From Bacteroidota bacterium (GTDB taxonomy: Bacteria; Bacteroidota; Bacteroidia; Bacteroidales; FEN-979), in the NCBI GenBank assembly GCA_026391805.1, contig JAPLDJ010000011.1, positions 2,219-66,218 on the forward strand: a stretch of 64,000 nucleotides of DNA, written 5' to 3'. Shown in pieces: positions 7,696-53,963 of this stretch. The position numbers and the translations under genes were made by a program. The notes below the pieces were generated by a model. That model saw only the letters and a program-made list of their open reading frames with translations. It ran no database searches and was not told the DNA's origin. How positions within the stretch are numbered: the first letter of the stretch is position 1; each line of letters begins with the position of its first letter.

Positions 7696-7866
7696 GGGGT
7701 TGACTAAAAAGAAAAAGTATGCTGAATATTATCCTTTGTGCGACTTTGTGTGTACCTGCCTGCCGGTAGGCAGGCTTCGTGTCCTTTGTGGTTCAATCAC
7801 TTAATATTTAACTACAAAGGCCACAAAGGGCTTCACAAAGGCGAATAAGTATTTTTTGTCAGCCCC
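7696..7866 (+). mobile_element. MITE-like element, copy 1 (171 bp)
   Basis: Terminal IRs GGGGTTGACTAAAA / TTTTTGTCAGCCCC; near-identical inverted copy at 17988-18109. Confidence 0.75.
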
Positions 7867-7948
7867 AAGCCGAAGGCTGGGGTGAGTTCATTAAAATGAA
7901 CCGCAGATGATCTATCTTTGATGCAGTAAAATAACTTCCCTTAATTCC

Positions 7949-9217
7949 ATGAATGAATACGATGTCATCGTTGTAGGTGCCGGTGCCGCAGGATTAATCG
8001 CTGCCGGCAGGGCTGCCGAACTTGGGGGAAAGGTCCTTCTGCTCGAGAAGATGGAACGTGCAGGCCGAAAACTCCTGATCACCGGGAAAGGCCGCTGCAA
8101 CATCACCAACGATGCACCGCAAAGCGAATTTTATGATCACATCTACCCGAATGCCCGGTTCCTGAAACATGCATTCGGCACCTTTTTCTCCCATGATATT
8201 ATCAGTTTGCTTGAAAAGAACGGCCTGGAAACCGTTGTGGAACGCGGGGGAAGGGTATTTCCGGCAACAAACAGCTCGGCCGATGTGGTGAATGCCTTAC
8301 TAAAATGGGTGAATTCATCTCATGTTGAGATCAGGTACGGGCAGAAGGTAGATCGCCTTATTCTTGCCGACGGAGAGGCGAAAGGGATTGATGTTGATTT
8401 CGGTGGCAGGCATTCTGATATTCTGGCGAAGAAGATCATCATCTGCACCGGGGGATGTTCATACCCGGCCACCGGATCCACCGGCGACGGTCACCGGATG
8501 GCAGCCAAAGCAGGTCATTCGGTCGAAACACCACGGCCTGCTCTCGTTCCTGTTGAAACAGAAGGAAAGCTTGCACAGCGACTCCAGGGGCTGAGCCTGA
8601 AGAATGTGAGAGCTGTGGTATGGGTGAACGGAAAGAAGCTGAAGGATGAATTCGGTGAAATGCTTTTTACTCACTTCGGACTTACAGGCCCCATTATTCT
8701 TAGCCTTAGCCGGTTTGTTGTGGACGAACTGATGAAGAAAAATTTTGTGGAAATTTCTGTCGACCTGAAACCCGCGCTGGATGAGGTCAAACTCGACAAA
8801 CGGCTGCTCCGCGACCTGGATGAGAACGGCAAACGGAAGCTGGAAAATATTTTCAGGCTCTGGCTCCCCTCCTCCATGATCCCGGTATTCCTTGAAGAAC
8901 TGGGCATCGACGGGCAAAAGGAAGGACACCAGGTGAACGGGAAAGAACGGAGAAAGATCATGCTTATGATGAAGAACCTCCGGTTCAGGGTCAGCGGTTA
9001 CCGTTCGTTCAAAGAGGCGATCATTACTGCCGGCGGTATTCCCACCAGCGAGATCGATTCAAAGACGATGGAGTCGAAAGTTGTTAAGAACCTTTATTTT
9101 GCGGGAGAAGTGATCGACCTCGACGCCGATACCGGCGGGTTCAACCTCCAGATCGCATTCTCGACTGCATGGCTGGCAGCACAATCCTGTATGAGGCAGG
9201 ATGATGTTACTTCCTGA
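7949..9217 (+). CDS. HI0933/BaiN-family flavoprotein (NAD(P)/FAD-dependent oxidoreductase)
   Basis: GAGAAG, GRKLLITGKGRCNITN, GEMLFTHFGLTGP, DADTGGFNLQ. Confidence 0.93.
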   Translation: MNEYDVIVVGAGAAGLIAAGRAAELGGKVLLLEKMERAGRKLLITGKGRCNITNDAPQSEFYDHIYPNARFLKHAFGTFFSHDIISLLEKNGLETVVERGGRVFPATNSSADVVNALLKWVNSSHVEIRYGQKVDRLILADGEAKGIDVDFGGRHSDILAKKIIICTGGCSYPATGSTGDGHRMAAKAGHSVETPRPALVPVETEGKLAQRLQGLSLKNVRAVVWVNGKKLKDEFGEMLFTHFGLTGPIILSLSRFVVDELMKKNFVEISVDLKPALDEVKLDKRLLRDLDENGKRKLENIFRLWLPSSMIPVFLEELGIDGQKEGHQVNGKERRKIMLMMKNLRFRVSGYRSFKEAIITAGGIPTSEIDSKTMESKVVKNLYFAGEVIDLDADTGGFNLQIAFSTAWLAAQSCMRQDDVTS

Positions 9218-10962: not shown

Positions 10963-11095
10963 CTCTGTGAACCTTCGTGTCTTCTCAGTGAACCTCAGTG
11001 AAACAAAATCAGAACACGGATGACACGGAGTAAACGCCCGCCTGCCGGCGAGGCAGGGAAAAATCACAGTGGGTTTTCCGTGTATTCCGAGTTCC
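10963..11095. repeat. Repeat mosaic with a degenerate GC palindrome at 11037-11057
   Basis: ctctgtg/ctcagtg units, cacgga...tccgtg inverted units, cccgcctgccggcgaggcagg. Confidence 0.7.
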
Positions 11096-12225: not shown

Positions 12226-12325
12226 TTACACGAAGATCACGAAGCCTGCCTGCCGGCAGGCAGGAAGACACGAAGAACCACGAAGAAAAACTCACCAGTT
12301 CACAAGTTCGCCAATTCGCCAGTTA
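12226..12325. repeat. CACGAAG array (type B) containing the 20-bp palindrome (12245-12264), then 8-mer CCARTTCG units
   Basis: ttacacgaagatcacgaag[cctgcctgccggcaggcagg]aagacacgaagaaccacgaag. Confidence 0.85.
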
Positions 12326-17987: not shown

Positions 17988-18109
17988 GGGGTTGACTAAA
18001 TAGTCCTTATTCGCCTTTGTGAAGACCTTTGTGGCCTTTGTGGTTAAATTTTAAGTGATTGAACCACAAAGGAAAATATTCTGCATACTTTTTCTTGTTA
18101 GTTAACCCC
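17988..18109 (-). mobile_element. MITE-like element, copy 2 (122 bp, inverted)
   Basis: GGGGTTGACTAAA...TTAGTTAACCCC; its reverse complement aligns to 7696-7866 without the 50-bp segment. Confidence 0.75.
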
Positions 18110-27815: not shown

Positions 27816-27919
27816 ATCGTCCGCAGTAGTCTGATTTTATCGGCTAAAGGTAAGAACTATTTGAATTTTGATCGTACTTTTGATTTTTCTTTTTTTAATT
27901 TAATGGTGTTGAAAAAGAT

Positions 27920-28126
27920 GAGGTCTGAGGACAGATGTCAGAGGTCGGAAGATGGAGGATGGAGGATAGAGAATGGATTCTGTGACTTAATCTGTGTAAT
28001 CCCTGCCTGCGGCGGGCAGGTGTGAAATCTGTGGTGAAAAAAGAATTACACGAAATTCCACGAAGAAGACACAAAGAACACGAAAAACAAGATAAAAAAC
28101 TCCTTTATGAACTTTACAAACTTTCT
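27920..28126 (+). repeat. Composite repeat mosaic upstream of folP (GAGGTCG-like 7-mers, type A with palindrome at 28002-28020, type B, AACTTTA)
   Basis: Shares long segments with the reverse complement of 32084-32217. Confidence 0.85.
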
Positions 28127-28129
28127 ACT

Positions 28130-28960: not shown

Positions 28961-28967
28961 TTCTGGA

Positions 28968-29060
28968 ATTTTCTGTGTTTAATCCGTGTAAATCTGTGTA
29001 AATCTGCGGTGAATTTATTATTACACGAAAATCCACGAAGAAGACACGAAAATCCACGAA
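28968..29060 (+). repeat. Left arm of the 93-bp inverted repeat bracketing cdaA
   Basis: First 83 bp are identical to the reverse complement of the right arm; 2 mismatches in 93 bp. Confidence 0.93.
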
Positions 29061-29145
29061 AACTTTAACAGCAACAGCTGAAAAGCAAATAGCGATAGTA
29101 TCGTTTCTTTTGGTTAATTTTGCCTCGTTCTCATAACTACACCTT

Positions 29146-29937: not shown

Positions 29938-29976
29938 CTGATGAGCTAATGAGCTGACGAATTAGCAAAATTTCCC

Positions 29977-30069
29977 TTCGTGGTTCTTCGTGTCTTCTTC
30001 GTGGATTTTCGTGTAATAATAAATTCACCGCAGATTTACACAGATTTACACGGATTAAACACAGAAAAT
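29977..30069 (-). repeat. Right arm of the 93-bp inverted repeat bracketing cdaA
   Basis: Reverse complement of 28968-29060. Confidence 0.93.
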
Positions 30070-31446: not shown

Positions 31447-31486
31447 CAGAAAATTCCCGGATTCGCATATTTTACCCAACCTCAGT

Positions 31487-32068: not shown

Positions 32069-32083
32069 ATAGATTCTGTTTTT

Positions 32084-32217
32084 ATTTACGGTTTACGATT
32101 TAATTTTCGCTATTTCGCTTTTCGCTATTTGTTTTTTCACCACAGATTTCACACCTGCCCGCCGCAGGCAGGGATTACACAGATTTCTCTATCCTCCGTC
32201 TTCCGACCTCAGACCTC
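32084..32217 (-). repeat. Composite repeat mosaic starting at the def stop, with palindrome at 32154-32172
   Basis: Sense strand: gaggtctgaggtcggaagacggagg...aatctgtgtaatc[cctgcctgcggcgggcagg]tgtgaaatctgtggtgaaaaaa...aatagcgaaaagcgaaatagcg. Confidence 0.85.
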
Positions 32218-32790: not shown

Positions 32791-32811
32791 AGGAACAATC
32801 TAAAATAAATG

Positions 32812-33258: not shown

Positions 33259-33355
33259 CGTTAAAAAACCGGTGCAAAGTTAAGCATGATTCGGGTACGG
33301 GCGGTGAAGGGATGTTATTAATTCCTTACTTTTGATCTTTCATTAAAGGAAGAAA

Positions 33356-35165: not shown

Positions 35166-35274
35166 AAGCTGAATTTGAATTCTCATACAATTTAATAGGA
35201 TTTTTAGCGTAATTTTGCTGCACTGAAAGGAAAAAACGAACATCCTTTCATCCCTAACAATTCTTGTTCCTGTT

Positions 35275-35838: not shown

Positions 35839-37910
35839 CGACAAACAAGTTCAAACAGCTGGCCATCCGAAGGGAAGACAAAGAATATACGATCAAAAGC
35901 ACCGGAAAGGAAACGCTGCAGAAATGGTTTTCGTTGCTTACACTTGGCCGCAAACTGGACGAGAAAGCCCCGAATTACCTGAAGCAGGCGCTGGGATGGT
36001 CGTACCATGCACCATACGCCGGGCATGACGGGATCCAGTTAGCCATCGGACAGATCTTCGACCGGAATACCGATCACCTCTTTCCTTATTACCGTGACAT
36101 GCTAACGGTGATATCGGCAGGCCTGACGGCCGAAGAGATCATCCTCAACGGACTTTCGAAAGCACAGGATGTTGCCAGCGGGGGACGGCATATGTCGAAC
36201 CATTTTGCCAAGCCCGGATGGAACATTCACAACGTTTCTTCCAGCACCGGGAACCATACACTGCATGCAGTCGGCGTTGCAAGAGCCATTAAATATTATG
36301 GCAGCAAGGGAGTGGCCATCAGTTCCCAGGGAGAATCTTCGGTTTCCGAAGGATATGTATATGAAGCCATCAACGGGGCGAGCCGGGAAGAACTCCCGGT
36401 GATCTTTGTTTTCCAGGATAATGGCTACGGGATCTCGGTGCCGAAATCCGATCAGACCGCCAATCCCAGGGCAGCCGATAACTTTCTTGCGTTCAAAAAC
36501 CTGGGTGTGATATACTGCAACGGCAAGGACATGTTCAATTCCATGAATGCCATGCACAAGGCCAAACAGACCGTCCTGGAAACGGGCAAGCCGGTGATTG
36601 TCCATGCCAACTGCATCCGCATCGGATCCCATTCGAACAGCGACCGGCAGGAGCTTTACCGCGGTCCTGAAGAGTTGCAGGAGGCCCGCATGCTCGATCC
36701 CCTGGCAAAATTCAGAAAGATGCTGTTCTATTCCGGGAAGTTCACAGAGGAAGAACTTGCTGCCGTTGAAGAGGAAGCCACTCAGATCATTTCAGCCGCC
36801 CATAAAAAAGCGCTGGCAGCGCCTGATCCCGATCCGAAAACCATTCTTGATTTTGTGACGGCCTCACCCTATTCCCCGGTAAAATATCCCGAAGGAATAC
36901 CGGATGGAAGCGGGCCGAAGAAGCGGCTGATCGAAGCCCTCAATGAAACGCTGAAAGCTGAATTCCGTCATAATCCCGACACTTTTATGTGGGGACAGGA
37001 TATGGCCGCTGGTGAAAAAGGCGGGATTTTTAATGTTTCAAAAGGACTGCAGAAGGAATTCGGGCCGCAGCGCATCTTCAATGCCCCGATTGCAGAGGAT
37101 TACATTGTTGGTACGGCCAACGGGATGAGCCGGTTCAATGAAAAGATCCGCATTGTTATTGAAGGCGCCGAGTTTGCCGACTACTTCTGGCCGGCCATGG
37201 AACAGCTGGTCGAACTGTCGCATGATTTCTGGCGCAGCAACGGACAATTCGCACCGAACGTTACCATCCGGCTCGCATCCGGCGGGTATATCGGCGGTGG
37301 TCTTTACCATTCACAGAACATTGAAGCTTCATTGTCGACCTTCCCGGGCCTGAGGATCGTTTATCCGTCATTTGCAGATGATGCGGCCGGTTTGCTGCGA
37401 ACCTGCATACGATCAAAAGGTCCGTCGGTCTTCATGGAACCAAAAGCACTTTACAACGATCCTCTTGCAGAAGCCAATGTCCCGGATGATTTTGAGGTAC
37501 CGTTCGGCAAGGCAAGGATCCGCAGGGAGGGCGACCGCCTGACGCTGATCACGTACGGGAACACCACCCACATGTGTCTGCGCGTGGCTGAAAGGATCGC
37601 GAAGGAAAATAACATCCAGGTTGAAGTGATCGACCTGCGTTCGATCCTCCCGCTGGATAAGGAAACCATCATCCGGTCGGTAAAAAAGACAAACCGCGCA
37701 CTCGTTGTCCACGAAGACAAGGTATTTTCCGGTTTCGGAGCCGAAGTTTCAGCCATGATCCAGGAAGAGGTTTTCCGATACCTGGATGCGCCGGTGAAAC
37801 GTGTCGGAGCTACTTTCACGCCGGTGGGCTTCAACAGGATCCTTGAAAAAGCGATCCTTCCGGATGACGACAAGATATATATTGCTGCCAAAGAGATCCT
37901 GGCATTCTGA
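35835..37910 (+). CDS. 2-oxoacid (probably branched-chain) dehydrogenase E1, fused alpha+beta
   Basis: PYYRD, TPP-binding GESS...DNGYGIS, HSNSD, FNAPIAE, YHSQ, VIDLRS. Confidence 0.9.
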   Translation: MTTNKFKQLAIRREDKEYTIKSTGKETLQKWFSLLTLGRKLDEKAPNYLKQALGWSYHAPYAGHDGIQLAIGQIFDRNTDHLFPYYRDMLTVISAGLTAEEIILNGLSKAQDVASGGRHMSNHFAKPGWNIHNVSSSTGNHTLHAVGVARAIKYYGSKGVAISSQGESSVSEGYVYEAINGASREELPVIFVFQDNGYGISVPKSDQTANPRAADNFLAFKNLGVIYCNGKDMFNSMNAMHKAKQTVLETGKPVIVHANCIRIGSHSNSDRQELYRGPEELQEARMLDPLAKFRKMLFYSGKFTEEELAAVEEEATQIISAAHKKALAAPDPDPKTILDFVTASPYSPVKYPEGIPDGSGPKKRLIEALNETLKAEFRHNPDTFMWGQDMAAGEKGGIFNVSKGLQKEFGPQRIFNAPIAEDYIVGTANGMSRFNEKIRIVIEGAEFADYFWPAMEQLVELSHDFWRSNGQFAPNVTIRLASGGYIGGGLYHSQNIEASLSTFPGLRIVYPSFADDAAGLLRTCIRSKGPSVFMEPKALYNDPLAEANVPDDFEVPFGKARIRREGDRLTLITYGNTTHMCLRVAERIAKENNIQVEVIDLRSILPLDKETIIRSVKKTNRALVVHEDKVFSGFGAEVSAMIQEEVFRYLDAPVKRVGATFTPVGFNRILEKAILPDDDKIYIAAKEILAF

Positions 37911-37933
37911 TTTAATCATTTTAACTCGCTCGA

Positions 37934-40297
37934 ATGAAACAGTACCTTTTCCTGTTCCTGCTGATAAGTATTATCCTGATCAGCCTGCCGGTATCCGCTC
38001 AGAAAGAGAAGCCTAAAACCCATACCATCAGCGGGAGAGTAACCGATTCCCAGAATGGGGAAAGCCTCATCGGGGCCACGATCTATGTCAGTGAAATGAA
38101 AACCGGGGCGGTGTCCGATATCTACGGAAATTATTCCGTTACACTGCCTGTGGGGCAATATACCGTTGTGATCTCCTATATCGGTTATAGCACAGTTCAG
38201 AAAACCATAACCCTGGATAAAGATGTAACGCTGAAAGTGGAACTCTCCGTCCGGCAGGAAAACCTGAAGGAGGTTGAGATCTCAAGCGAGCGAAATAATA
38301 AAAATGTGCTGAGGCCGGAGATGAGCACCTTCAAGATGGACATCAAGACCATCGAAACCATTCCTGCACTTTTCGGTGAAGTGGATATCATTAAGGCCAT
38401 CCAGCTGCTTCCCGGGGTGCAGTCGGTCAGCGAAGGATCGAGCGGTTTCAGCGTGCGGGGCGGCGCACCGGATCAGAACCTTATCCTTCTCGACGGGGCC
38501 AATGTTTACAATGCCTCCCACATGCTCGGATTTTTTTCAGTGTTCAACAATGATGCAATCAAAGATGTTAAGCTTTACAAAGGTGATATTCCCCCGGCCT
38601 ACGGCGGCAGGCTCTCATCGGTGCTTGACATCCATATGGAAGAGGGCAATTCAAAGAAACTGGAGATCAACGGCGGTATCGGACTAATCTCCAGCCGGCT
38701 CACCATTGAAGCCCCCATCCTCAAAGACCGCTGTTCATTCATCGTTTCCGGCCGCAGGACCTATGCCGACCTTTATCTTCCCCTTTCCTCCAACAAGGCG
38801 CTGCAGAATAACAAGCTTTACTTCTATGATCTGAATGCCAAGATCAATTATAAGTTCGGAGACAAAGACCAGATCTTCCTTTCAGGATATTTCGGGAGGG
38901 ATGTATTTAAAAACCAGTTCGCCGGTATGCAATGGGGCAACGGCACCGGTACCCTGCGTTGGAACCACTTGTTCACGAAAAAGCTCTTTGGTAACTTTTC
39001 TGCCGTTTACAGTGATTACCGGTACCGGATCGACGGCGGAAGCGGCAGCGAAAGCGATGTTACGGCCTTTCAGTGGAACGCCAGCCTGAAGGATATCGGG
39101 GTGAAAGGAGATTTCAGCTATTTCGCGAATACCAAAAATACGATCAAATTCGGCGTGTCAGCCACCTACCATATCATCGATCCCGGCGTTGCAAAGGGCA
39201 CAGGTTCATCGGTGTTTAATGAAATCAGTGTTCAGCACAATTATGCACTTGAAACCGGGCTTTACGCCGGCAATGAAGAGCGCCTCGGAGATTATTTCAC
39301 CTTAAAATACGGACTGCGGTTCTCCATGTTCCAGAATGTCGGCCCGGATACCGTCTTTCAGTATGACGCCAATTACAATACCAGCGGAAATACGGCCTAC
39401 AACTCAGGAACATTTTATCATACCTATTACGGACTTGAACCCCGGGTGGGATTGCTTTTCTCCGTCAATGACAAATCTTCCGTAAAAGCCAGCTATTCCA
39501 GGACCAACCAGTACATGCAGCTCGCCCAGAATTCAACGGTCGGTACACCATTGGATATCTGGTTTCCTGCCAGTCCGAACGTAAAGCCCCAGATCAGCGA
39601 CCAGGTTGCACTGGGATATTTCAGGAATTTCAGGAGGAATACGATTGAAACCTCCTGCGAGGTCTATTACAAATGGATGCAGCATGTGATCGATTTCAAG
39701 GATTATGCGGTTCTGCTGCTCAACGACACGCTGGAAGGGCAGTTGAGAATTGGGAAAGCATGGTCGTATGGCGCAGAGTTCCTTGTCAGGCTGAATGAAA
39801 AGAAGCTGAACGGCTGGGTCAGTTATACCTATTCAAGGGTATTCCGGCAGGTGGCTGAGATTAACAACGGAAACTTCTATCCGGCGCCTTATGACAAGCC
39901 GCACAACGTTGCCATCGTTTTAAATTACAGGATCTCGAAGAGGTTCCTTGTTTCCGCGAACTGGGTCTATTCCACGGGGAATCCGTTGACGTTCCCCATT
40001 GGCAGGGCCGAGATCGGCGGAAAAATCTTTCCCATCTATTCTGATCGCAATGCTTACCGTTACCAGGCCTATCACCGACTGGACCTATCCATGACCTTTT
40101 ATTCGAAGCAGAAGCCCGGGCGGAAATTCGCCTGGGATCTGAATGCCTCCATCTACAATGTTTACAACCGGCATAACACCTGGTCCATTGAATTCGTGCA
40201 GGATAAGGTGAATCCGAATGTGACCAGTGCTGAAAGAGTCTATTTATTCGGGATCATACCCTCCGTCACCTTTAATTTCCATTTCAACAATGAATAA
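37934..40297 (+). CDS. TonB-dependent receptor
   Basis: GESLIGAT, IQLLPGV, VRGG..DQNLILLDG, YGGRLSSV, YHRLDLS. Confidence 0.92.
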   Translation: MKQYLFLFLLISIILISLPVSAQKEKPKTHTISGRVTDSQNGESLIGATIYVSEMKTGAVSDIYGNYSVTLPVGQYTVVISYIGYSTVQKTITLDKDVTLKVELSVRQENLKEVEISSERNNKNVLRPEMSTFKMDIKTIETIPALFGEVDIIKAIQLLPGVQSVSEGSSGFSVRGGAPDQNLILLDGANVYNASHMLGFFSVFNNDAIKDVKLYKGDIPPAYGGRLSSVLDIHMEEGNSKKLEINGGIGLISSRLTIEAPILKDRCSFIVSGRRTYADLYLPLSSNKALQNNKLYFYDLNAKINYKFGDKDQIFLSGYFGRDVFKNQFAGMQWGNGTGTLRWNHLFTKKLFGNFSAVYSDYRYRIDGGSGSESDVTAFQWNASLKDIGVKGDFSYFANTKNTIKFGVSATYHIIDPGVAKGTGSSVFNEISVQHNYALETGLYAGNEERLGDYFTLKYGLRFSMFQNVGPDTVFQYDANYNTSGNTAYNSGTFYHTYYGLEPRVGLLFSVNDKSSVKASYSRTNQYMQLAQNSTVGTPLDIWFPASPNVKPQISDQVALGYFRNFRRNTIETSCEVYYKWMQHVIDFKDYAVLLLNDTLEGQLRIGKAWSYGAEFLVRLNEKKLNGWVSYTYSRVFRQVAEINNGNFYPAPYDKPHNVAIVLNYRISKRFLVSANWVYSTGNPLTFPIGRAEIGGKIFPIYSDRNAYRYQAYHRLDLSMTFYSKQKPGRKFAWDLNASIYNVYNRHNTWSIEFVQDKVNPNVTSAERVYLFGIIPSVTFNFHFNNE

Positions 40298-41135
40298 GCG
40301 CTTCCTATACATCCTGGTTCTTGCAGCGGCAGCAGCATCCTGCACAGAGAAGATCGACCTGAAACTGGATTCGACCTATACGCGTCTTGTGGTCGACGGA
40401 CACATCACCTCCGATTCCATGGCTCACTTTATCAGCCTGACCAAAACCTCGGATTATTTTTCCAACCAGCCTTCGCCAAGGGTCACAAATGCGACACTGT
40501 CACTCAGTGACGGAACAAATACATTTCCTCTTACAGAGACCGTTCCGGGTCAGTCAGGCATTTACAGCACCGACCCGAAATTTGCAGGGATTATCGGGAA
40601 GACTTACACCCTGAATATCTCACTGCCGGAAGTCATTGCAGGCACGACTGAATACACCGCATCCTCCGAACTTATCGGGGTTACAAAGCTTGATTCGATT
40701 CAGGCTGTTTTCCGTTCAGATATCGGCAAGGATGGAATCTGGCAGGTGAAGGTATTTGCCCAGGATCCCCCTGGAAGCAGAAATTATTACATGATGAACC
40801 TTTACCGGAACCATAAGCTCTGGTCCGACACCATCACAAAAGTCGGGATCACCGATAACCAGTTCTTCGCCGGAAATTACATCCCGGGCGCCGATGCTTT
40901 TTACATCAACAACAGCAACAAGTGGGAAACCCTCTACCCCGGAGATACTGTCACGCTTGAGTTATCCGCGGTTACGAAAGAATATTATGATTTTATCGGC
41001 CAGGTCCAGTTCGCAGGCATCAGCATTCCTTTCTTCAGCGGCCCCCCCGCCAATGTTGTGGGTAATATCAGCAATGAAGGGGTTGGGTTCTTTGCGGCGT
41101 ACTCAAGCAGTTTTGCCTCGTGCATTGTTAAATAG
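40290..41135 (+). CDS. DUF4249-family lipoprotein
   Basis: Lipobox AASC, LVVDG, P.NVVGNI..GFF.A; follows a TonB receptor. Confidence 0.85.
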   Translation: MNKRFLYILVLAAAAASCTEKIDLKLDSTYTRLVVDGHITSDSMAHFISLTKTSDYFSNQPSPRVTNATLSLSDGTNTFPLTETVPGQSGIYSTDPKFAGIIGKTYTLNISLPEVIAGTTEYTASSELIGVTKLDSIQAVFRSDIGKDGIWQVKVFAQDPPGSRNYYMMNLYRNHKLWSDTITKVGITDNQFFAGNYIPGADAFYINNSNKWETLYPGDTVTLELSAVTKEYYDFIGQVQFAGISIPFFSGPPANVVGNISNEGVGFFAAYSSSFASCIVK

Positions 41136-41299
41136 CGAAATGGCGAGATAGCGAAAAGTCATAGGTCATGTGTCAAAAGTTGGAAAATATAGTCTGTGAC
41201 TAATCCCTGCCTGCGGCAGGCAGGTGTGAACATCTGTGTAATCTGTGGTGAAAAAAGAAACTTTAAGAACTTTATGAACTTTATGAACTTTATAAACTT
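41130..41299 (+). repeat. Composite mosaic: 8-mer, 7-mer, type A with palindrome (41206-41224), 9-mer AACTTTATG
   Basis: Same module order as 47446-47645. Confidence 0.88.
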
Positions 41300-42758
41300 A
41301 AAGAGAACCATCTTAGGCCTGTTTATACTGATTTCTTTTGAGGGTTTTTCACAATCGAAAGAGATGATTGAGAAGATCAAAGGCTCGTGGGCAGGACCTC
41401 TGAAAGTCGGGGCGGCAGAACTTACTGTTGTGATCAACATCACGGCGAATGAAAAAGACAGCCTGATCGTCACCATCGACAGTCCCGACCAGAGTGTTAA
41501 CGGCATTGCCACTTCGAAGGTCCGTGTCACCGGAGATTCGCTGATCGTCAAATCAAAAGTCCTGAAGGCGACTTACAAGGGTGCGTTCGGAAGTGATTTC
41601 ACGGAGTTAAAAGGCACCTGGACACAGTCTTTTACCGAATTTCCCCTGAATCTTCATCATTCCTTTGAGAAATACAGCGTCAAACGGCCGCAGGAGCCTA
41701 AACCTCCTTATCCGTACATTGAAAAAGAGGTTGTCATTAAAAACGAAAAAGCGGGTGTTGACCTCGCCGGGACCCTGACCCTGCCGGAACAGGGCGGACC
41801 TTTTCCTGCAGTGATCCTGATCACCGGATCGGGGACTCAGAACCGGGATGAGGAGATGATGGGGCATAAGCCATTTCTCCTTCTGGCAGATTATCTTACA
41901 CGAAGAGGGATCGCCGTGCTGCGTTGTGATGACCGTGGTTTTGGTAAATCAACCGGGACGATGAATGCCGGGACGACCCTTGATTTTGTCTCCGATGTTG
42001 TTGCTGAATTTAATTTCCTGAAGATGCAGAAGGAGATCGATACCACGCGGATTGGTCTTGCCGGTCACAGTGAAGGCGGGCTGATTGCTCCTATCGTGGC
42101 CTCAAAGCAAAAGGATGTGGCTTTTATCATACTTCTTGCAGGGCCGGGCGTTACGGGCGAACAGATCCTTCTGCTGCAAACGGCGCTGTTAAACCGAAAA
42201 GCCGGGTTGAGCGAAAAAGACATTGAATTCGAGGCCAAACTGAGAACAAAGATCTATACTGCGATCAGGAAGAACAACGATAATGAAAAAGCCGCCAAAC
42301 AGATCAAACTGATCCTGAAGTCTGCCAAAAAGAAAAACCCAGATGGGAATGGCCTCGTTAAGATCACGGATCAGCAAGCCGACCTTTTTATCCAGCAATG
42401 CACCACGCCATGGTTCAGGATGTTCCTTGTCCTGGATCCGGTCGATTACCTTTCACAAACGAAATGTCCCGTTCTGGCGCTGAATGGTTCGCTGGATCTC
42501 CAGGTCCCGGCAAAGGAGAACCTCAAGGCCATTGAGAAAGCGCTGATATACGGCGGAAATTCACAATACACCATCGAAGAGATTCCGGGGCTCAACCATC
42601 TCTTCCAGCATGCCACAACCGGAAACATAGATGAATACGGGAAGATTGAAGAAACAATGTCGCCGGAGGTGCTGGAGAAGGTTGCCGACTGGATCAGCAA
42701 AATAGCGAAAAGCGAAATAGTGAAAAGCTCTGTGAGCCTCTGTGTCTTCTCTGTGTAA
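41274..42758 (+). CDS. Secreted alpha/beta hydrolase (serine peptidase/esterase-like)
   Basis: RPQEP, GSG.QNRDE, GHSEGG nucleophile, NGSLDLQV, NHLFQ; start at 41274 or 41283. Confidence 0.9.
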   Translation: MNFMNFINLKRTILGLFILISFEGFSQSKEMIEKIKGSWAGPLKVGAAELTVVINITANEKDSLIVTIDSPDQSVNGIATSKVRVTGDSLIVKSKVLKATYKGAFGSDFTELKGTWTQSFTEFPLNLHHSFEKYSVKRPQEPKPPYPYIEKEVVIKNEKAGVDLAGTLTLPEQGGPFPAVILITGSGTQNRDEEMMGHKPFLLLADYLTRRGIAVLRCDDRGFGKSTGTMNAGTTLDFVSDVVAEFNFLKMQKEIDTTRIGLAGHSEGGLIAPIVASKQKDVAFIILLAGPGVTGEQILLLQTALLNRKAGLSEKDIEFEAKLRTKIYTAIRKNNDNEKAAKQIKLILKSAKKKNPDGNGLVKITDQQADLFIQQCTTPWFRMFLVLDPVDYLSQTKCPVLALNGSLDLQVPAKENLKAIEKALIYGGNSQYTIEEIPGLNHLFQHATTGNIDEYGKIEETMSPEVLEKVADWISKIAKSEIVKSSVSLCVFSV

Positions 42759-42783
42759 CTCTGTGTAATAATTTTTATAGAAA

Positions 42784-42815
42784 AAAAGAGGCCAACATTT
42801 CTGAAGGCCTCTTTT
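42784..42815. terminator. Probable bidirectional terminator
   Basis: AAAAGAGGCC...GGCCTCTTTT between convergent genes. Confidence 0.65.
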
Positions 42816-42835
42816 GCTTTTAAATAAGTTTCCGG

Positions 42836-44950
42836 TTATTTCACAACGATCATTTTGCGGGTGAGTTTTCCGGTGGAAGATTGCAGGGTGTAATAATAAA
42901 CTCCTGCATTAAAACCGGAAATGGACACTGTCACGTTGCTGGTTCCTGCCGGGTAAACGCCGTCACTGATATGGCTGATCATTCTGCCATTCACATCATA
43001 CAGATCCAGCGAAATGCGGTCAGACGCCGGAAGTGAGAAGGAGATGACGGTCTGGTCAGCGGCCGGATTCGGCATGTTCTGGCTAAGTGTAACATTTCCT
43101 TTCGAAGAATTTTCATTCACCCCGACGGCATAATCCATGAACCAGTGCCATGCCCTGTTGATGACATCGTTGGCTACAGCGGTGGTCTGGATCATCTCCA
43201 GGCCGAAGCCGAAGTAACATATTTTCGCGCCATTCTTCACAGTGCGGATGGCAGAAATTTTCGACAGTGCCGTATTGTAATAGAATGTTGTTGTTGCATC
43301 TGCCAGGGGCGCAATCTGGTCGGGGTACATGTATCCTCCAAACACATCCACGACATTCGATGTAGCTACCATTCCGAAAACAGAATCGCTCACATTTGCG
43401 ACCATCTTGTTGTTGGCTGTGCTTCCGTCGTCGATCCATTGTGCCTCCAGGTAGTTGGTATAGAGGTCCTGGGTTGCTGTGGTTCCGTGGCTTCCGCTCT
43501 GTCCGCTCATGATGTCCCAGCCAATATCCTGTCCTGCGACCAGTACATCCCCTCCCCCATTGATAAAGGCTTTCAGCGCAGTGGCTTCCGGATCGGTGAA
43601 GGCAGGGAAGGTCCAGGATACGTTGTAAAAAATATCCTTTACCTCGGTAAGAATTGCAGCATGTGATGCCCTGACAAAAAGATCGGATGCCATCACCGCA
43701 TTGTAGGTGCTTCCGGCGGCCAACAGTCCGTTCACATAAACTGCCTGGTGTTGCTTTGCAATACCATCGCCGGCAGCATTAACCAGCAGGGTATTCACGT
43801 TCGACAGAACATAAACAGTAAAATATTTGGTCGGCGCATTCGGATTGTTCACCGATCTCATCTCCAGCGTGTAGGAATAAAATCCAGAAGTATCACCGGG
43901 TATGACCTCCAGTTCGAAATCCTTTGCCGTTCCTTTTACAAGGTTCATGGCAACACTGTCGGGATAGGGATTGGCATCCACGGTGAGGTGTGCGCTCCAG
44001 TCCGACGGTGCATTTGAAACCAGTTTGACAATGAATGGCTCACTCCCCGTCAGGTTGCTGTTGGCCTGAAGTGAAAATACAGTACTGGTTGCGGGGTGAC
44101 CCAGCGCCATTGTGCTGTCGGAGGTTGTGATATCTCCTACGTAAAGGTTCGTTCCGCCGATGGCATCAACAACATCGCCGGAGAGAATTTCCTGGTGGCT
44201 TTCGGTAACAAATGCAACCACCTGGCATTTTGAAACGATGCAGGGAATACTGTTATAATCTGCAGGAACTGTATAAGTGTAAGTTTTCTCCACCAGAGAA
44301 CCTGTTGTGGTCGTCGTGACTGCATCGCCCCATTGCCCAGTGATCAGGTAACGCAGCATATGCATATGTTCATAATTGTTGCCTGCGCCGCCACCGGTTT
44401 GCGGACCAAAGATATGATCCTGGATCAAAGCAACGTTGATGTAATTCGTTGTAGTGGCGCTGTTCCCGGTATAGTAAAGCTCAACATGCACAGTAAGTTC
44501 GCGGGTTAAACTGTCGAAACCGGAGGTGATCCCCACGTTAACCGGCGAAACCTGTCCGAGAATGATGTTTGAAGAATTTGTCCAGTCCCCCCTGCCGAGG
44601 GCGGTTATTCCTCCCATGAAAACATGCCGGTTGACGGTCCCGGAAGGATAGCCTGAGAGGCCTGTCTGCGCTGCAAGCGGATCGCCGAAAGGGGTACGAT
44701 AGTCAGGCTCACTTCCGCTCGGGACGGCATAAGAACCCTGGTGAACGGAAATCACCGCTGCCCTGCCGGGATTGTTGTTAAGGATCGCCTGTGCGATCAC
44801 ATGTCCCTCCGGACAGTACTGGCAATGGATCCCGGTATAGTCTTCAAGGACGACATTTTTGTTCAGCGTGTTCGTGGTCACGAGGGTCTGCCCGCTCGCC
44901 GCGAAGAAAAAGGCAATAATTAAGGAGAATGTGGTAAAAATCTTTTTCAT
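42836..44950 (-). CDS. Omp28-related protein with T9SS type A CTD
   Basis: VVLEDYTGIHCQYCP, GYPSGTVNR, HMHMLR; QNMPNPA...GVYYY...KMIV. Confidence 0.88.
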   Translation of the reverse strand: MKKIFTTFSLIIAFFFAASGQTLVTTNTLNKNVVLEDYTGIHCQYCPEGHVIAQAILNNNPGRAAVISVHQGSYAVPSGSEPDYRTPFGDPLAAQTGLSGYPSGTVNRHVFMGGITALGRGDWTNSSNIILGQVSPVNVGITSGFDSLTRELTVHVELYYTGNSATTTNYINVALIQDHIFGPQTGGGAGNNYEHMHMLRYLITGQWGDAVTTTTTGSLVEKTYTYTVPADYNSIPCIVSKCQVVAFVTESHQEILSGDVVDAIGGTNLYVGDITTSDSTMALGHPATSTVFSLQANSNLTGSEPFIVKLVSNAPSDWSAHLTVDANPYPDSVAMNLVKGTAKDFELEVIPGDTSGFYSYTLEMRSVNNPNAPTKYFTVYVLSNVNTLLVNAAGDGIAKQHQAVYVNGLLAAGSTYNAVMASDLFVRASHAAILTEVKDIFYNVSWTFPAFTDPEATALKAFINGGGDVLVAGQDIGWDIMSGQSGSHGTTATQDLYTNYLEAQWIDDGSTANNKMVANVSDSVFGMVATSNVVDVFGGYMYPDQIAPLADATTTFYYNTALSKISAIRTVKNGAKICYFGFGLEMIQTTAVANDVINRAWHWFMDYAVGVNENSSKGNVTLSQNMPNPAADQTVISFSLPASDRISLDLYDVNGRMISHISDGVYPAGTSNVTVSISGFNAGVYYYTLQSSTGKLTRKMIVVK

Positions 44951-45095
44951 GGTGAAGGATTTTGATTTCAGTTTAGATTCATGACAAAAGTACAATTATT
45001 CATCAACCGTCGGACTGATGGAATTCCAATTTTTACTAACTTTGATTACTTTTAAAAGCGAACAGTGAATACTGAACAAATAACAACTAACAGCT

Positions 45096-46445
45096 ATGGC
45101 GAGTTCTTTGGATGCAATCTCCCCCATTGACGGACGCTACCGGAAAGTGACGGAGCCGCTGGCGGCTTTTTTTTCCGAATCCGCGGTCATCCGTTACCGT
45201 ATCCTTGTGGAAGTGGAATATTTCATCTCCCTTTGTTCGATTCCTCTTCCGCAACTGAAAGGATTCAATAAGAAGTTCTTCCCGGAACTGAGGTCGCTTT
45301 ACAAGCAATTCCAGCCGGAATATGCTGTCAGGGTAAAGGAAATCGAAAAGATTACAAACCATGATGTGAAAGCCATTGAATACATCCTGCGGGAGAAATT
45401 CGATGAGTTCGGGATCGGTCAGTACAAGGAATTCATTCATTTCGGGCTGACATCGCAGGACATCAACAACACGGCGTTTCCGCTTGCGCTGAAAGAGGCT
45501 TTCCTTGATGTTTACAAGCCGATGCTGGACGAGATCCTCGCAGTGCTGAAGCAGAAAAGCAAAGAATGGAAAAAGGTTCCGATGCTGGCGCGTACGCACG
45601 GGCAGCCGGCATCGCCCACCACGATCGGGAAAGAACTGTATGTTTTTGCAGAGCGGCTGGAAAAGCAGATGAACCTGCTGGAGACGATCCCTTCTTCGGC
45701 AAAATTCGGCGGGGCCACCGGAAATTTCAATGCCCACCATGTGGCGTATCCTTCCATCGACTGGATCGGGTTTGCGGACAAGTTTGTGCAGGAATCGCTG
45801 GGACTTGAGCGGTCGACCACTACCACCCAGATCGAGCATTACGACAATCTGGCCGCCCTGTTCGATAACCTGAAACGGATCAACACCATCCTGATCGATT
45901 TTTCAAGGGATATCTGGACCTACATCTCGATGGATTATTTCCGGCAGAAGGTAAAAAAGAGTGAAGTCGGCTCATCAGCCATGCCACACAAGGTGAACCC
46001 GATCGATTTTGAGAATGCGGAGGGAAACCTCGGGATGGCCAATGCCATCTTTGAACACCTGTCGGCCAAGCTGCCGGTATCGCGCCTGCAGCGCGACCTT
46101 ACCGATTCCACCGTGATCCGGAATACAGGAGTGCCACTGGCCCATTCGGTGATCGCCTTCCGTTCGCTGCTCAAGGGCATCGACAAGCTGATCCTTCATG
46201 AAGAAAAGATGGAAAAGGACCTTGACGAGAACTGGGCCGTGGTTTCAGAAGCCATCCAGACCATCCTCAGGCGGGAGAATTACCCTGACCCCTTCGAAGC
46301 ACTGAAAGGGCTGACCCGTGGAAAATCGAAAATCGATAAAAAGATGCTGCATAAATTCATCGACGGACTCGACGTTCCCGTCAAAATAAAAAATGAATTA
46401 AAGAAGATCACACCGGCCAACTATACCGGGATCATCCCGTTCTGA
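45096..46445 (+). CDS. purB: Adenylosuccinate lyase
   Basis: SPIDGRY, TNHDVKA, RTHGQ, GSSAMPHKVNPIDFEN. Confidence 0.97.
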   Translation: MASSLDAISPIDGRYRKVTEPLAAFFSESAVIRYRILVEVEYFISLCSIPLPQLKGFNKKFFPELRSLYKQFQPEYAVRVKEIEKITNHDVKAIEYILREKFDEFGIGQYKEFIHFGLTSQDINNTAFPLALKEAFLDVYKPMLDEILAVLKQKSKEWKKVPMLARTHGQPASPTTIGKELYVFAERLEKQMNLLETIPSSAKFGGATGNFNAHHVAYPSIDWIGFADKFVQESLGLERSTTTTQIEHYDNLAALFDNLKRINTILIDFSRDIWTYISMDYFRQKVKKSEVGSSAMPHKVNPIDFENAEGNLGMANAIFEHLSAKLPVSRLQRDLTDSTVIRNTGVPLAHSVIAFRSLLKGIDKLILHEEKMEKDLDENWAVVSEAIQTILRRENYPDPFEALKGLTRGKSKIDKKMLHKFIDGLDVPVKIKNELKKITPANYTGIIPF

Positions 46446-46470
46446 TTCAGAAGTATCTTTACATATTTGA

Positions 46471-46560
46471 TAAGCGATAAGCGATAAGCGATAGGCGATA
46501 GGCGATAGGCGATAGGCGATAAGCGAAAAGCGAAAAGCGAAAAGCGAAAAGTGAAAAGTC
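46471..46560 (+). repeat. 12-unit heptamer array
   Basis: (TAAGCGA)3(TAGGCGA)4(TAAGCGA)(AAAGCGA)3(AAAGTGA). Confidence 0.95.
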
Positions 46561-46587
46561 AAAAAAATTAATACAGGCATAGGAAGG

Positions 46588-47460
46588 ATGAAAGTCAGTG
46601 GCTTCACCATTGTCAGAAATGCCATTAAATACGATTACCCGGTGGTGGAGTCGATCTGCTCGATCCTTCCCCTGTGCGACGAAATGGTTGTTGCCGTTGG
46701 AAATTCTGATGACGGCACACGGGTGCTGGTGGAATCGATTGGTTCTGACAAGATCCGGATCCTCGATACCGTGTGGGACGAATCGCTGCGGAAAGGAGGC
46801 GAGGTCCTTGCCGTCGAAACAAACAAGGCCTTTGATGCCATTTCCCCCGAAAGCACATGGGCCGTTTACATCCAGGCCGACGAGGTTTTGCATGAAGCAT
46901 CTTATGAAATTTTGCGAAAGGCAATGGAAACCCGTAAAGATCATCCTGAAGTAGAAGGCTTTGTTTTTGATTACCGGCACTTCTTCGGTTCGTATGATTT
47001 CATCGCCGATTCACGCGACTGGTACCGGCGGGAAGTCCGGATCATCAGGAACAACAAGGCAATCCGCTCCTATAAAGATGCACAGGGATTCCGCAGGGAA
47101 GGGAAGAAACTTAATGTGAAAACCACCTGCGCCGTGATGTGCCATTACGGATGGGTCAAGCCTCCTGAATCGATTCGGTCGAAACTGGAATACTTCCATA
47201 CACTCTGGCACGATAAAGAATGGATGGAGAAGAACAGGGAGCAGGCGGGTTCGTTTGATTATTCCCAGATCGATTCACTTTCAAGGTTCAATGGAACTCA
47301 TCCCGAAACCATGAAGAAAAGAATAGCGGAAAAGAACTGGGAATTCACCTTCGACCCGACAAAGAAAAAGTTCCCGCCAGTCGCAAGAATGTTGCATGCG
47401 ATTGAGAAGGTGACAGGCTGGAGGGTTGGGGAGTACAAGAATTATAAAATAGCGAAGTAG
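46588..47460 (+). CDS. Glycosyltransferase family 2
   Basis: SGFTIVRNA, GNSDDGT, YIQADE, HYGWV. Confidence 0.88.
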   Translation: MKVSGFTIVRNAIKYDYPVVESICSILPLCDEMVVAVGNSDDGTRVLVESIGSDKIRILDTVWDESLRKGGEVLAVETNKAFDAISPESTWAVYIQADEVLHEASYEILRKAMETRKDHPEVEGFVFDYRHFFGSYDFIADSRDWYRREVRIIRNNKAIRSYKDAQGFRREGKKLNVKTTCAVMCHYGWVKPPESIRSKLEYFHTLWHDKEWMEKNREQAGSFDYSQIDSLSRFNGTHPETMKKRIAEKNWEFTFDPTKKKFPPVARMLHAIEKVTGWRVGEYKNYKIAK

Positions 47461-47645
47461 CGAAATAGCGAAAAGTCATATGTCATATGTCATATGTCAT
47501 AAGGTCTCAAAGTTTGTCTGTGACTAATCCCTGCCTGCGGCAGGCAGGTGTGAAAATCTGTGGAATCTGTGGTGAAAAACAAATAGCTAAATCGTGAAAT
47601 TGAGAAATAGCGAAAGAAAGAACTTTACAAACTTTATAAACTAAA
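47446..47645 (+). repeat. Composite mosaic: 8-mer, GTCATAT 7-mer, type A with palindrome (47530-47548), 8-mer, AACTTTA
   Basis: Aligns with 41130-41299. Confidence 0.88.
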
Positions 47646-47705
47646 CCCCTTATTTCATAAACATTTTAGGGATAATCTTCTTAAATTTGTAAAAAATATC
47701 ACTCT

Positions 47706-51529: not shown

Positions 51530-53680
51530 CTACTTCCCGTCAGTAACTTTAATAAATTTCCCGTACCGGCCGTTAAGACCGTTTGAATCAGTTAATCTTA
51601 CAAGGTAGATGCCCGGGGTCAGGCCCGAAACATCGATTTCCTTTTTATCACTTTGTTCAATCAATACCTTCCCTTCCGGAGAGTACAACGTCACCATGAA
51701 ATATCCTTCACCGGTTTCAAGGAATATATGGTCAGAAGCCGGGTTGGGATAGATCGTAAAGTCACCCGCTATCGTTTTGTGACCGGTTCCTGCAATAACA
51801 TCCCGGAGCAGGAAGGCGGGATGAAGGTTCTGTGAAGTTGTGTTCCCGACCGAATCCATCAGCATCACCATCAGATCGATCAGGGCAGAATCAGAATAGC
51901 TGTTCATCACCGGTGTGAGATCCGCTTCATAAGGCATTCCGCAGGTTGAGTCCAGCTTTGCCGGGATGGAATTCACGGGAAGTGAGGTCCATGTTGTCTC
52001 GTCATAATTTTTATAGAAAAGCTGGACATCAGCCAAGGAATGGTAAATGCGCTGATACGATGGAGTATATTCCCAATCCGCAGCTGTAAAGCTGACTTTG
52101 GCCGGGTAACCGCGTACAATCTCTGGGGACACATTATCTCCCTGCTGCACCTTAAATGCCATCATGGTCGGAGAACAGGCATCCGTGGGGTTCGCCAGGT
52201 CGAACGTCAGAGTGGTCTGGAGGAAACCCTGCTTCCCGTAAAAGAGGTAGTTGCTGTCGTTCAGGATAACGCTGTAAATACCGGTGCCGGGAGTATAATA
52301 ATAGATCTCAAAACTGTTGCGCGCAGAGTCCTGGTAAATCATAATGTTTTCATCCCATATCTGATAGGTGCACAAGGGAACATCCACATACCGTCTTTCG
52401 TTGCTCTGCCCTCGAAAATGGGAATAAATATCGATAAATGGTTGTCCGGGCTTGTTGACCTGCCACGTGACGTTGAACGGGGCGGTGTTCCCAACCGTCA
52501 CCGCTTCACCGGGCGATATCCGGTAATCGGATTCCACCGGCGGATAGTTGCCCTGGGTGCTGAATATAAGATCATTGGTTTTATACAGATAGGTAATCGG
52601 GGTCATGATATCGGTCATGTGTGTTGTGGACATGGGATTCAGGCCGAGATGATCGATAAATGTTGCAAAAAAGGATTTGTTGGAATCGACGGGAGACTGG
52701 TTCAGGTATAGGATCACTGAATCGGTTTCCGAGCTGGGATAGTCATCCCATAGAAATGCCCCCACAAATGTGTCCACGGATCCGGTCAGGGAATCATTTG
52801 AAACAGGGCCATAGCCCCAGGCCAGGTAAAAGTCCTTCCCCGACGGCGCGGAATTCAGGATCTGCATCGAGTGCTTCATTTCCGAAGGATCGCTCGTCAG
52901 CGCAGTATCACTGGTTACTCCGCTCAGGACAGGATATGTGATAGAATATTGTTGATAAAGCTTCTTTTTCGTGACAAAGATCCTGTTCATCAGGATCTTC
53001 ATATTGGGTGGGATATCGGACACCATGATGGAGTCCGGCACAAACCCGGAGTAACAATAGGAAGAATACGGTACCTTGGAAGGCTCATCAAATTCCACAT
53101 TGACACCAAAACCATCTCCTGAATCCCCAGACTGCCCCTGCAGGGTATCGCCATACTCGTCAAGGGCAACGAGCCGGATCTGGTGATTTGCGGATGAAGA
53201 CAGGATGGTCGTATCCATATCCGTGTACACAAGAAAATGACCGTCGAAAATATAACGTTGGACAATAAATCCATCCATAGAGCAAAAAAGCTGATAGTAT
53301 CCGGCGGGCATGTCAGCCTCAAGCGTCGTGGAATTGACCCAATTCATGTTATAGTTGCTTAAGAACATAGTGTCAGCATTCACGCAAAGCAGATCATTAA
53401 AACCGTTTGCCTGATCAAAATGGAAAACGATATGGTTTGTCTGTAAGGGCTTTTTGCTCCCAGCAAGAAGTTTCGCTTCCCTTGCGTCACGATCATTTTG
53501 GAAGGGATTATAATACCTTGCCGGCTTGCCGGCATGCCGGGCGACGGAATGAGAATACTTTCCGTTGGCAAGCCGGTGAATGTCTGAAACCGTTTGAACA
53601 TTGGATAAATTGGTTTGGAACTGTGCGGCTGTGAGGCAGGAGATGGAGATAAGGCAAAGGATCAGGAAGGAGGTTTTCAT
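51530..53680 (-). CDS. T9SS type A CTD-containing hypothetical protein
   Basis: Signal peptide; IYPNPASD...IDVSGLTPGIYLV...KFIK. Confidence 0.85.
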   Translation of the reverse strand: MKTSFLILCLISISCLTAAQFQTNLSNVQTVSDIHRLANGKYSHSVARHAGKPARYYNPFQNDRDAREAKLLAGSKKPLQTNHIVFHFDQANGFNDLLCVNADTMFLSNYNMNWVNSTTLEADMPAGYYQLFCSMDGFIVQRYIFDGHFLVYTDMDTTILSSSANHQIRLVALDEYGDTLQGQSGDSGDGFGVNVEFDEPSKVPYSSYCYSGFVPDSIMVSDIPPNMKILMNRIFVTKKKLYQQYSITYPVLSGVTSDTALTSDPSEMKHSMQILNSAPSGKDFYLAWGYGPVSNDSLTGSVDTFVGAFLWDDYPSSETDSVILYLNQSPVDSNKSFFATFIDHLGLNPMSTTHMTDIMTPITYLYKTNDLIFSTQGNYPPVESDYRISPGEAVTVGNTAPFNVTWQVNKPGQPFIDIYSHFRGQSNERRYVDVPLCTYQIWDENIMIYQDSARNSFEIYYYTPGTGIYSVILNDSNYLFYGKQGFLQTTLTFDLANPTDACSPTMMAFKVQQGDNVSPEIVRGYPAKVSFTAADWEYTPSYQRIYHSLADVQLFYKNYDETTWTSLPVNSIPAKLDSTCGMPYEADLTPVMNSYSDSALIDLMVMLMDSVGNTTSQNLHPAFLLRDVIAGTGHKTIAGDFTIYPNPASDHIFLETGEGYFMVTLYSPEGKVLIEQSDKKEIDVSGLTPGIYLVRLTDSNGLNGRYGKFIKVTDGK

Positions 53681-53823
53681 GGGGCGGATTTATAAATTCA
53701 GATGAAGATTATCCGGGAATGAGCTGTTGGGACGAACGGAAAACCGCGCTAATGTAAAAAAAAACGTTTCCAAATTTACTTACCAACCAATTAATTCAAA
53801 AATAATAAAAATTGAATTACCCA

Positions 53824-53963
53824 GGACGGAGGTCGGAGGTCGGAAATCTGAAAAATCCGTGTAATCCCTGCCTGCGGCAGGCAGGTGTGTAATCTGTGGT
53901 AAAATTCAATCTTCATTTCCGCACAATTTCATGAGTACCTTCTTACGATTTTACGATCTTACC
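53824..53963 (+). repeat. Composite mosaic upstream of ORF6N (GGAGGTC 7-mers, type A with palindrome at 53867-53885, TTACGAT 8-mers)
   Basis: aatccgtgtaatc[cctgcctgcggcaggcagg]tgtgtaatctgtggt. Confidence 0.85.

Follow-up and report, generated by a model that had tools for sequence, protein, structure and literature searches.

A 19-20-bp GC palindrome inserted precisely into other repeats of a Bacteroidales genome, with a GIY-YIG/tRNA-Arg cassette as its candidate partner

How does a GC-rich palindrome of only 19 or 20 bp come to lie inside one repeat family after another? The question is raised by a 64-kb stretch of a Bacteroidales genome (GCA_026391805.1, contig C3, JAPLDJ010000011.1, positions 2219-66218; the whole stretch is hereafter called the window), which belongs to an assembly of 3.89 Mb in 28 contigs. 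The palindrome, here named P, reads CCTGCCTGC(C)GGCAGGCAGG, that is, an 8-bp GC stem with a loop of 3-4 nt; the 20-bp form is a perfect palindrome and the 19-bp form, CCTGCCTGCGGCRGGCAGG, a near-perfect one. Folded as DNA, the 19-20 nt give -8 kcal/mol, with z from -2.3 to -3.1. P is a discrete 19-20-bp insert without target duplication, and the GIY-YIG nuclease whose gene lies beside it in other genomes may, judging from gene neighbourhoods, be the enzyme that moves it.

Seven copies of P lie in the window, five of 19 bp and two of 20 bp, where 100 dinucleotide-preserving shuffles gave an expectation of 0 for each form. They are the following, a slash marking the junction at which P sits:

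7755..7774, no strand: P of 20 bp, one-base variant CCTGCCTGCCGGTAGGCAGG, at the CGAAG/TAC junction of a host that resembles a miniature inverted-repeat transposable element (MITE)
12245..12264, no strand: exact 20-bp P in the middle of a four-unit CACGAAG module (CACGAAG/AAGACACGAAG)
28002..28020, plus strand: P of 19 bp, variant ...GCGGCGGGCAGG, in an AATC/TGTG array upstream of folP
32154..32172, minus strand: P of 19 bp, the same variant as the copy at 28002, in an AATC/TGTG array
41206..41224, plus strand: exact 19-bp P behind the first unit of a AATCTGTG array
47530..47548, plus strand: exact 19-bp P behind the first unit of a AATCTGTG array
53867..53885, plus strand: exact 19-bp P in an AATCYGTG array of three units

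The window also holds host repeats, empty counterparts of the filled sites, and a second palindrome:

about 7702..7866, minus strand: the MITE-like host, with inverted ends of the GACTAAAAAG type and CTTTGTG/CACAAAG heptamer arms, about 165-190 bp
703..749, minus strand: empty AATCTGTG...GGTGAAAA array, the host repeat without P
28981..29014, plus strand: empty AATCYGTG array, with an inverted twin at about 30023-30060
29034-29050, plus strand: junction of a second empty CACGAAG module
29976..30003, minus strand: empty CACGAAG/AAGACACGAAG junction, equal to the 12245 site minus P
11037..11057, no strand: P', a 21-bp palindrome (CCCGCCTGCCGGCGAGGCAGG) distinct from P

A first, sequence-only reading of the window had counted eight copies of P; seven are P, and the eighth, taken for a degenerate copy at 11037, is the separate palindrome P'. 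Most of its other local observations hold. All eight positions fall between long open reading frames (ORFs); the 19-bp copies split AATC/TGTG in five cases out of five; and the 20-bp copies follow CACGAAG at 12245 and, on the minus strand, at 7755, where P is preceded by ACACGAAG. The CACGAAG flank at 7755 is thus as described, although the host there is the MITE-like element and not a plain CACGAAG array. Uninterrupted units are present at 703-749 and 28981-29010, deletion of P from the 12245 site gives a 28-mer that is the exact reverse complement of 29976-30003, and the flanks of the window copies contain no target duplication.

Two features of the window touch the host repeats rather than P. 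A further copy of the MITE-like host, at 17994-18105, is without the central part where the P site lies. An insertion sequence encoding a Mutator-family transposase (30070-31446; Pfam PF00872), whose ends match those of contigs C4 and C1 at 100% identity, is bracketed by the AATCYGTG plus CACGAAG module pair, present there as two inverted copies of 93 bp that are 98% identical.

Across the genome, a catalogue allowing at most one mismatch per arm of P comprises 106 copies, 68 of them exact, and 98 of the 106 (92%) are intergenic, being outside the ORFs of a crude map that spans about 90% of the genome. The hosts comprise ten contexts or more, grouped as follows:

ATC/YGT junctions of AATCTGTG...GGTGAAAA arrays (class A): 54 copies of P, namely 34 19-mers, all in one orientation, and 20 20-mers
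centre of four-unit CACGAAG modules (class B): 10 copies
one MITE-like family: 15 copies
other contexts (CGCAGA, CTCTGTG and GGATGGA arrays, tips of other hairpins, a tRNA fragment): 27 copies

The 19-bp form is concentrated in the ATC/YGT arrays (34/39), while the 20-bp form is distributed over those arrays (20), CACGAAG modules (10), the MITE (15) and other contexts (16). At C12:288570-289659 a 363-amino-acid ORF contains an in-frame stretch of heptamer words of the GGATGGA type and a 21-nt (7-codon) P variant. By eye, its N-terminus resembles that of an Old-Yellow-Enzyme-type flavin oxidoreductase.

The claim that P is a minimal non-coding insert with exact boundaries was examined by joining, for each copy, 14 nt of left and 14 nt of right flank and searching the genome for the product (blastn, at most three mismatches). 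An uninterrupted paralogous 28-mer was found for 83 of the 106 copies, against 0 of 106 chimeric control junctions. Each major host exists in both states. The MITE has 15 filled and 20 empty copies, with P always at CGAAG/TAC and with about 100 bp on either side that are 88-97% identical. CACGAAG modules are filled in 10 cases and empty in 40, P occupying the same central junction of class B every time, and 42 of the 170 AATCTGTG arrays are filled (128 empty). The number of units is equal in filled and empty AATCTGTG arrays; filled arrays have no extra unit and, therefore, there is no target duplication. Duplication of exactly one unit, which a tandem array might hide, was considered and rejected, since P often has different units on its two sides and the unit counts match those of empty arrays. 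Adjacent units can both carry P, as at C3:68413/68443 and C12:218784/218813, and the few doublets of P are such neighbouring filled units and not inverted doublets of the REPIN kind. P itself does not fit the definition of a MITE (terminal inverted repeats, target-site duplication, a parent insertion sequence), the whole element being one palindrome of 19-20 bp with exact, duplication-free junctions. The description of P as a precise insert accordingly stands.

P' behaves in a related manner. It has five exact copies in the genome (window 11037-11057, C23:272390, C2:3511, C23:259806 and C17:931). Three of these occupy precisely the loop of a 19-bp P, and another interrupts a GCTGGAT heptamer unit. 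Since P' is found inside P three times, P itself serves as a target.

Did the filled sites arise once or several times? The MITE allows an answer for one host. A tree was built from its flanks with P removed (32 rows, three contig-end copies being dropped as too short). On this tree the filled state requires 10 changes, against a mean of 10.6 for shuffled labels, and the only strongly supported clade contains filled and empty copies together. An approximately unbiased (AU) test rejected the grouping of all filled copies in one clade (p=0.000335, log-likelihood difference 77), so that for the MITE host the filled copies do not all descend from one composite unit and P has multiple origins. The most diverged, longest-branch copies are all empty, for which reason the empty state is probably ancestral. 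The mixture of filled and empty copies fits fresh insertion and gene conversion between MITE copies alike.

P is not confined to this genome. Exact copies occur in 10 of 40 relatives and in 50 of 401 sampled Bacteroidales genomes (this one included), representing 38 of 236 genera, while the reversed control sequence gave 0 everywhere. Beyond the order, P is identical letter for letter in 40 stretches of viral contigs and in at least 123 stretches of records titled Patescibacteria, Omnitrophota, Planctomycetes, Proteobacteria, Nitrospirota-type, Chloroflexi and others. Its flanks elsewhere are unrelated, consisting of other tandem-array units, hairpin tips, SRM-like motifs and tRNA-like D-loops, and comparison of the Bacteroidales sites, the 40 viral stretches and 80 cross-phylum loci disclosed no target sequence common to P sites. 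What the hosts of P share is that each is itself a structured repeat. The proposal of two target-specific subtypes is consequently only half right, because the 19-bp form is restricted to one host class but the 20-bp form is promiscuous, with no common target across genomes. Two foreign loci resemble arrangements seen here: in another Bacteroidales genome two copies of P lie within one GTGTTCA heptamer array (L072, G283:C26:10237-10537), and in a record titled Omnitrophica (L259) P lies inside an array of the AATCTGTG type, as in this genome.

Among other Bacteroidales, P is present in 1-12 copies per genome, against 68 exact copies here. In one congener (G005) all six copies lie in one composite element. 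The coding DNA of the 10 congeners compared is only 66-80% identical, and P was found in 0 of 20 of their orthologous spacers. The same two spacers hold differing short arrays in every congener (GGTATTG, GCTGGAT, AACTTTAT, ATTATGA, TTCATTC and others; L015-L034); arrays there turn over while the spacer persists. Because the congener spacers hold heptamer arrays of other kinds, no orthologous empty site can be defined in them. P is also absent from 739 kb of related metagenome contigs retrieved by a neighbour-protein scan, the best relative being 81% identical and none of the same species. From the congener spacers and these metagenome loci we conclude that growth to about 100 copies of P is specific to this lineage. 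Contigs from public runs covering window positions 27900-47650, of low depth, fragmented and breaking at repeats, listed a 19/20-nt gap or insert at no P site; calls of a single inserted C at 28009 and 41213 appear to stem from 20-bp copies at other loci that were cross-mapped to these positions.

A hairpin with a stem of this stability, intergenic in 92% of its occurrences and housed in arrays with an orientation bias, might be a functional element of the host, a terminator, an RNA stabiliser or a protein-binding site, kept by selection. Indeed, the AATCTGTG arrays run in the same direction as the flanking genes in 83 co-directional spacers and in the opposite direction in 22. Filled arrays share this bias with empty ones, and they are spread over spacer types just as the empty ones are. 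A run of U/T follows P on neither strand, and the terminator interpretation was rejected on these two grounds. Selection for local function also accords poorly with the lack of P in all 20 congener spacers and in the 739 kb of metagenome loci, and letter-perfect identity across phyla, together with presence in dead tRNA fragments, is ill-suited to local regulation. We therefore consider selection of P as a functional hairpin very unlikely.

Which enzyme could insert so short a hairpin? Duplication-free insertion of hairpins is typical of HUH/Y1 chemistry, and the sequence-only reading had accordingly proposed P as a REP-like hairpin moved on single-stranded DNA (ssDNA) by RAYT or IS200/IS605 TnpA, naming a Y1 gene flanked by P as the object to look for. 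Two Y1_Tnp proteins, scoring 72 and 30 bits, are encoded in the genome. Nevertheless, no sequence equal or similar to P occurs up to 1.5 kb from either gene, and both are flanked by other palindromes; P is without a conserved flanking tetranucleotide or guide-like sequence; and in other genomes the recurrent neighbour of P is a gene of the GIY-YIG type, not Y1. The proposed link thus found no support at the Y1 loci, and we hold this explanation to be very improbable.

The recurrent arrangement in other genomes consists of a tRNA 5' fragment containing P, a GIY-YIG ORF and an intact tRNA-Arg gene, in that order. The displaced fragment spans nucleotides 1 to about 32-42 of the tRNA, with P exactly between D-loop positions 22 and 23, and the D-loop of the intact tRNA in the cassette represents the empty site. 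The ORF follows 18-32 nt on. The P-linked ORFs encode single-domain proteins of 80-95 amino acids that score 59-62 bits with the Pfam GIY-YIG model. A profile built from six of these proteins has relatives in 139 of the 401 Bacteroidales genomes; the 41 best loci, with 44 GIY-YIG ORFs, were taken for neighbourhood and tree analysis. Within 130 nt upstream, exact P is present at 13 of the 44 ORFs (18-98 nt away in one of the scans) and a near-variant at three. On the protein tree the P-linked members group together: their label changes 7 times, shuffled labels give 13.3 changes, and none of 500 shuffles gets as low. Other GIY-YIG clades have other palindromes at the corresponding upstream spot. 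A tRNA-Arg gene, with any of five different anticodons, adjoins the nuclease gene in 16 of 17 P-linked loci. The profile matches 38 of 50 P-positive genomes and 101 of 351 P-negative ones in a hand cross-tabulation in which relatedness is uncontrolled and sister clades are also caught. P is, then, physically linked to a GIY-YIG/tRNA-Arg cassette, and the present genome retains a gene-less version of it at C23:176629: a tRNA-Arg(ACG) fragment with P, a 17-nt spacer and an intact tRNA.

Other small GIY-YIG genes occur in this genome in comparable settings. A tRNA-Asn(GTT) cassette at C20:1-1000 (L157) has three tandem tRNA 5' fragments, in each of which a 16-nt palindrome, TCCCGCACCTGCGGGA, replaces the anticodon arm; behind the fragments come the intact tRNA, then a small GIY-YIG gene, and finally another tRNA-like copy, which has two inserts. 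At C21:419742-419963 and C13:268771-268989, two GIY-YIG genes of about 98 amino acids are flanked by SRM-like repeats (TGTCATTGCGAGG...GAAGCAA). The SRM-like core, GTCATTGCGAG, has 114 copies in the genome at one mismatch or less, and one of the flanking copies has a P-like core.

The closest described counterpart is the Ssn family of single-domain GIY-YIG nucleases, proteins of about 94 amino acids which, in ssDNA, bind the hairpin repeats cognate to them (NTS/SRM) and cleave next to these (Chenal et al. 2025, PMC11893778). These repeats flank ssn genes and reach hundreds of copies, and the NTS-ssnA-NTS layout is regarded by the authors as insertion-sequence-like; in the portion of that report available to us, insertion events and precise filled/empty sites are not reported for NTS/SRM (PMC11893778). 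Compared with what is described there, P agrees in being a short hairpin repeat (20-50 nt in the Ssn system) physically linked to a single-domain GIY-YIG gene of about 90 codons, in its dispersal in tens to hundreds of almost exclusively intergenic copies, in the pairing of nuclease clades with differing hairpins, and in its insertion-sequence-like layout. A hairpin beside the GIY-YIG gene is found with P in other genomes, whereas its own genome has only the gene-less remnant. P differs in its precise filled and empty sites inside other repeats, in its presence where the cognate gene is lacking and, with regard to NTS, in its letter-for-letter conservation across phyla; unlike ssn, the P-linked genes are nested at tRNA-Arg genes and have P within a displaced fragment of the tRNA. 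The classic SRM-like repeats (GTCATTGCGAG) around two other GIY-YIG genes are an additional component of this genome, and the P-linked proteins share 31-41% identity with its SRM-flanked GIY-YIG genes.

In behaviour, P is closer to modules of another phylum. SDR1-8 of heterocystous cyanobacteria are reportedly modules of about 20-27 nt precisely inserted in other repeats, heptamer (STRR) arrays among them, and we know of no enzyme identified for them. P likewise is a module of about 20 nt located precisely inside other repeats, short tandem arrays included, so that the likeness is one of behaviour. For SDR5, precise insertion into HIP1 is described (PMC4390886). P is set apart from the SDRs by phylum, by an apparently different sequence, by its candidate enzyme partner and by its identity in many phyla; it combines SDR-like behaviour with an Ssn-like partner.

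Two features define REP sequences and REPINs: a tetranucleotide conserved at the hairpin base, and arrangement as inverted doublets. P has neither, being a bare palindrome of 19-20 bp, and has no association with RAYT. What P shares with REP/REPIN is their character as short palindromes outside genes that multiply within one genome, their mobilisation being ascribed to a RAYT, encoded once, that acts in trans (Bertels and Rainey 2011, PMC3116915). P further resembles the GC clusters of yeast mitochondria in being a tiny GC-rich palindromic insert, although GC clusters are organellar and of other sequence. The latter are very small GC-rich palindromes inserted in AT-richer spacers, with presence/absence variation and, for some classes, a short target duplication; to our knowledge they have no nuclease partner of the GIY-YIG kind. 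Among the literature matches listed, neither P nor tRNA-Arg-nested GIY-YIG cassettes were described.

Taking these results together, we favour a reading to which we would give an even chance of being correct: P is the hairpin of an Ssn-like GIY-YIG/tRNA-Arg cassette in solo form, which was dispersed in trans and later multiplied along with its host repeats. In the model, P would be a non-autonomous nano-element, namely a free-standing version of the hairpin found with one clade of small GIY-YIG genes. The nuclease would act on P in trans, by analogy with Ssn, which binds its cognate ssDNA hairpin and cuts beside it; binding, cutting or movement of P by the nuclease, like the chemistry of insertion, is inferred. 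By copying or pasting, and with no duplication of the target, the bare hairpin would enter exposed parts of other structured repeats, such as junctions of short tandem units, hairpin tips or junctions, and the D-loops of tRNA genes. In this genome some of the roughly 106 copies would be new insertions into at least ten host contexts, while others would have been carried along during multiplication of the host repeats (arrays, MITE) or conversion between them. The gene of the cognate nuclease would no longer be part of the assembly, in which a gene-less remnant is left beside tRNA-Arg(ACG).

Several findings weigh against this reading. One group concerns the arrays: every one of the 34 class-A 19-mers points the same way, arrays of three units are preferred by the 19-bp form and arrays of four by the 20-bp form, and P lies two units before the array end in 38 of 51 cases. 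One orientation, a preferred array size and a preferred position are fitted equally well or better by hitch-hiking or gene conversion than by fresh insertion. Another group concerns the enzyme. The cognate nuclease gene was not found in the 98%-complete assembly, where the GIY-YIG profile had 0 matches at E<=1e-12, and tblastn of the P-linked proteins reached at best 31-41% identity, to three other GIY-YIG genes. Among 80 cross-phylum P loci only 3, and among 40 viral stretches only 1, have a related GIY-YIG gene within the available flank; the GIY-YIG tree is weakly resolved, and the linkage to P could arise merely from tRNA fragments being good targets. Neither an excision product nor presence/absence polymorphism was seen in the low-depth, fragmented public-run contigs. 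P also departs from the NTS repeat (CGTCATTCC...GGGAATC), being, against the printed NTS consensus, a perfect palindrome without a directional flank; Neisseria SsnA requires a conserved directional flank (PMC11893778).

Could P then have been spread by its hosts alone? On this account a few rare illegitimate events would have been followed by multiplication of composite host repeats, with in-register gene conversion copying P. Most of the array findings speak for it: the common orientation of the 19-mers and the limitation of that form to one host class, the tracking of array subtype by P subtype, the one preferred junction, and the invariable central junction of class B. The single composite of congener G005 agrees with it, gene conversion would also yield the filled/empty mixing on the MITE tree, and no cognate enzyme gene is found in this genome. 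Purely passive spread leaves unexplained, however, the identical 20-mer in dozens of unrelated contexts across many genera and phyla, and would demand a precise non-homologous event for every new context, of which there are at least ten within this genome alone. It accounts neither for P' nested in P nor for the recurrent D-loop position in tRNA fragments beside one nuclease clade. Passive spread without any enzyme, the main rival, is in our estimation a rather doubtful explanation of P as a whole.

How very short hairpin repeats spread through bacterial genomes has long been asked, and REP/RAYT is the one case answered to date. What P adds is a palindrome whose letters are unchanged from phylum to phylum, a concrete and testable candidate enzyme among the recently described Ssn-like GIY-YIG nucleases, and, in the 35-copy MITE, a natural insertion assay with unusually clean filled and empty sites. 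A more specific idea, which we advance tentatively, is that P and its relatives are substrates of a hitherto undescribed GIY-YIG ssDNA transposition, in which a tiny single-domain nuclease, borne on a tRNA-Arg-parked, phylum-crossing cassette, would cut and paste, or copy and paste, the bare 20-nt hairpin into single-stranded loops of structured DNA; if true, it would be a GIY-YIG counterpart of HUH-mediated ssDNA transposition with the smallest known mobile unit. Should the link between P and the nuclease be true, nano-elements of the cyanobacterial type and the heptamer-array mosaics of Bacteroidales would be tied to a defined nuclease family, and new hairpin/nuclease pairs would become available for ssDNA tools.

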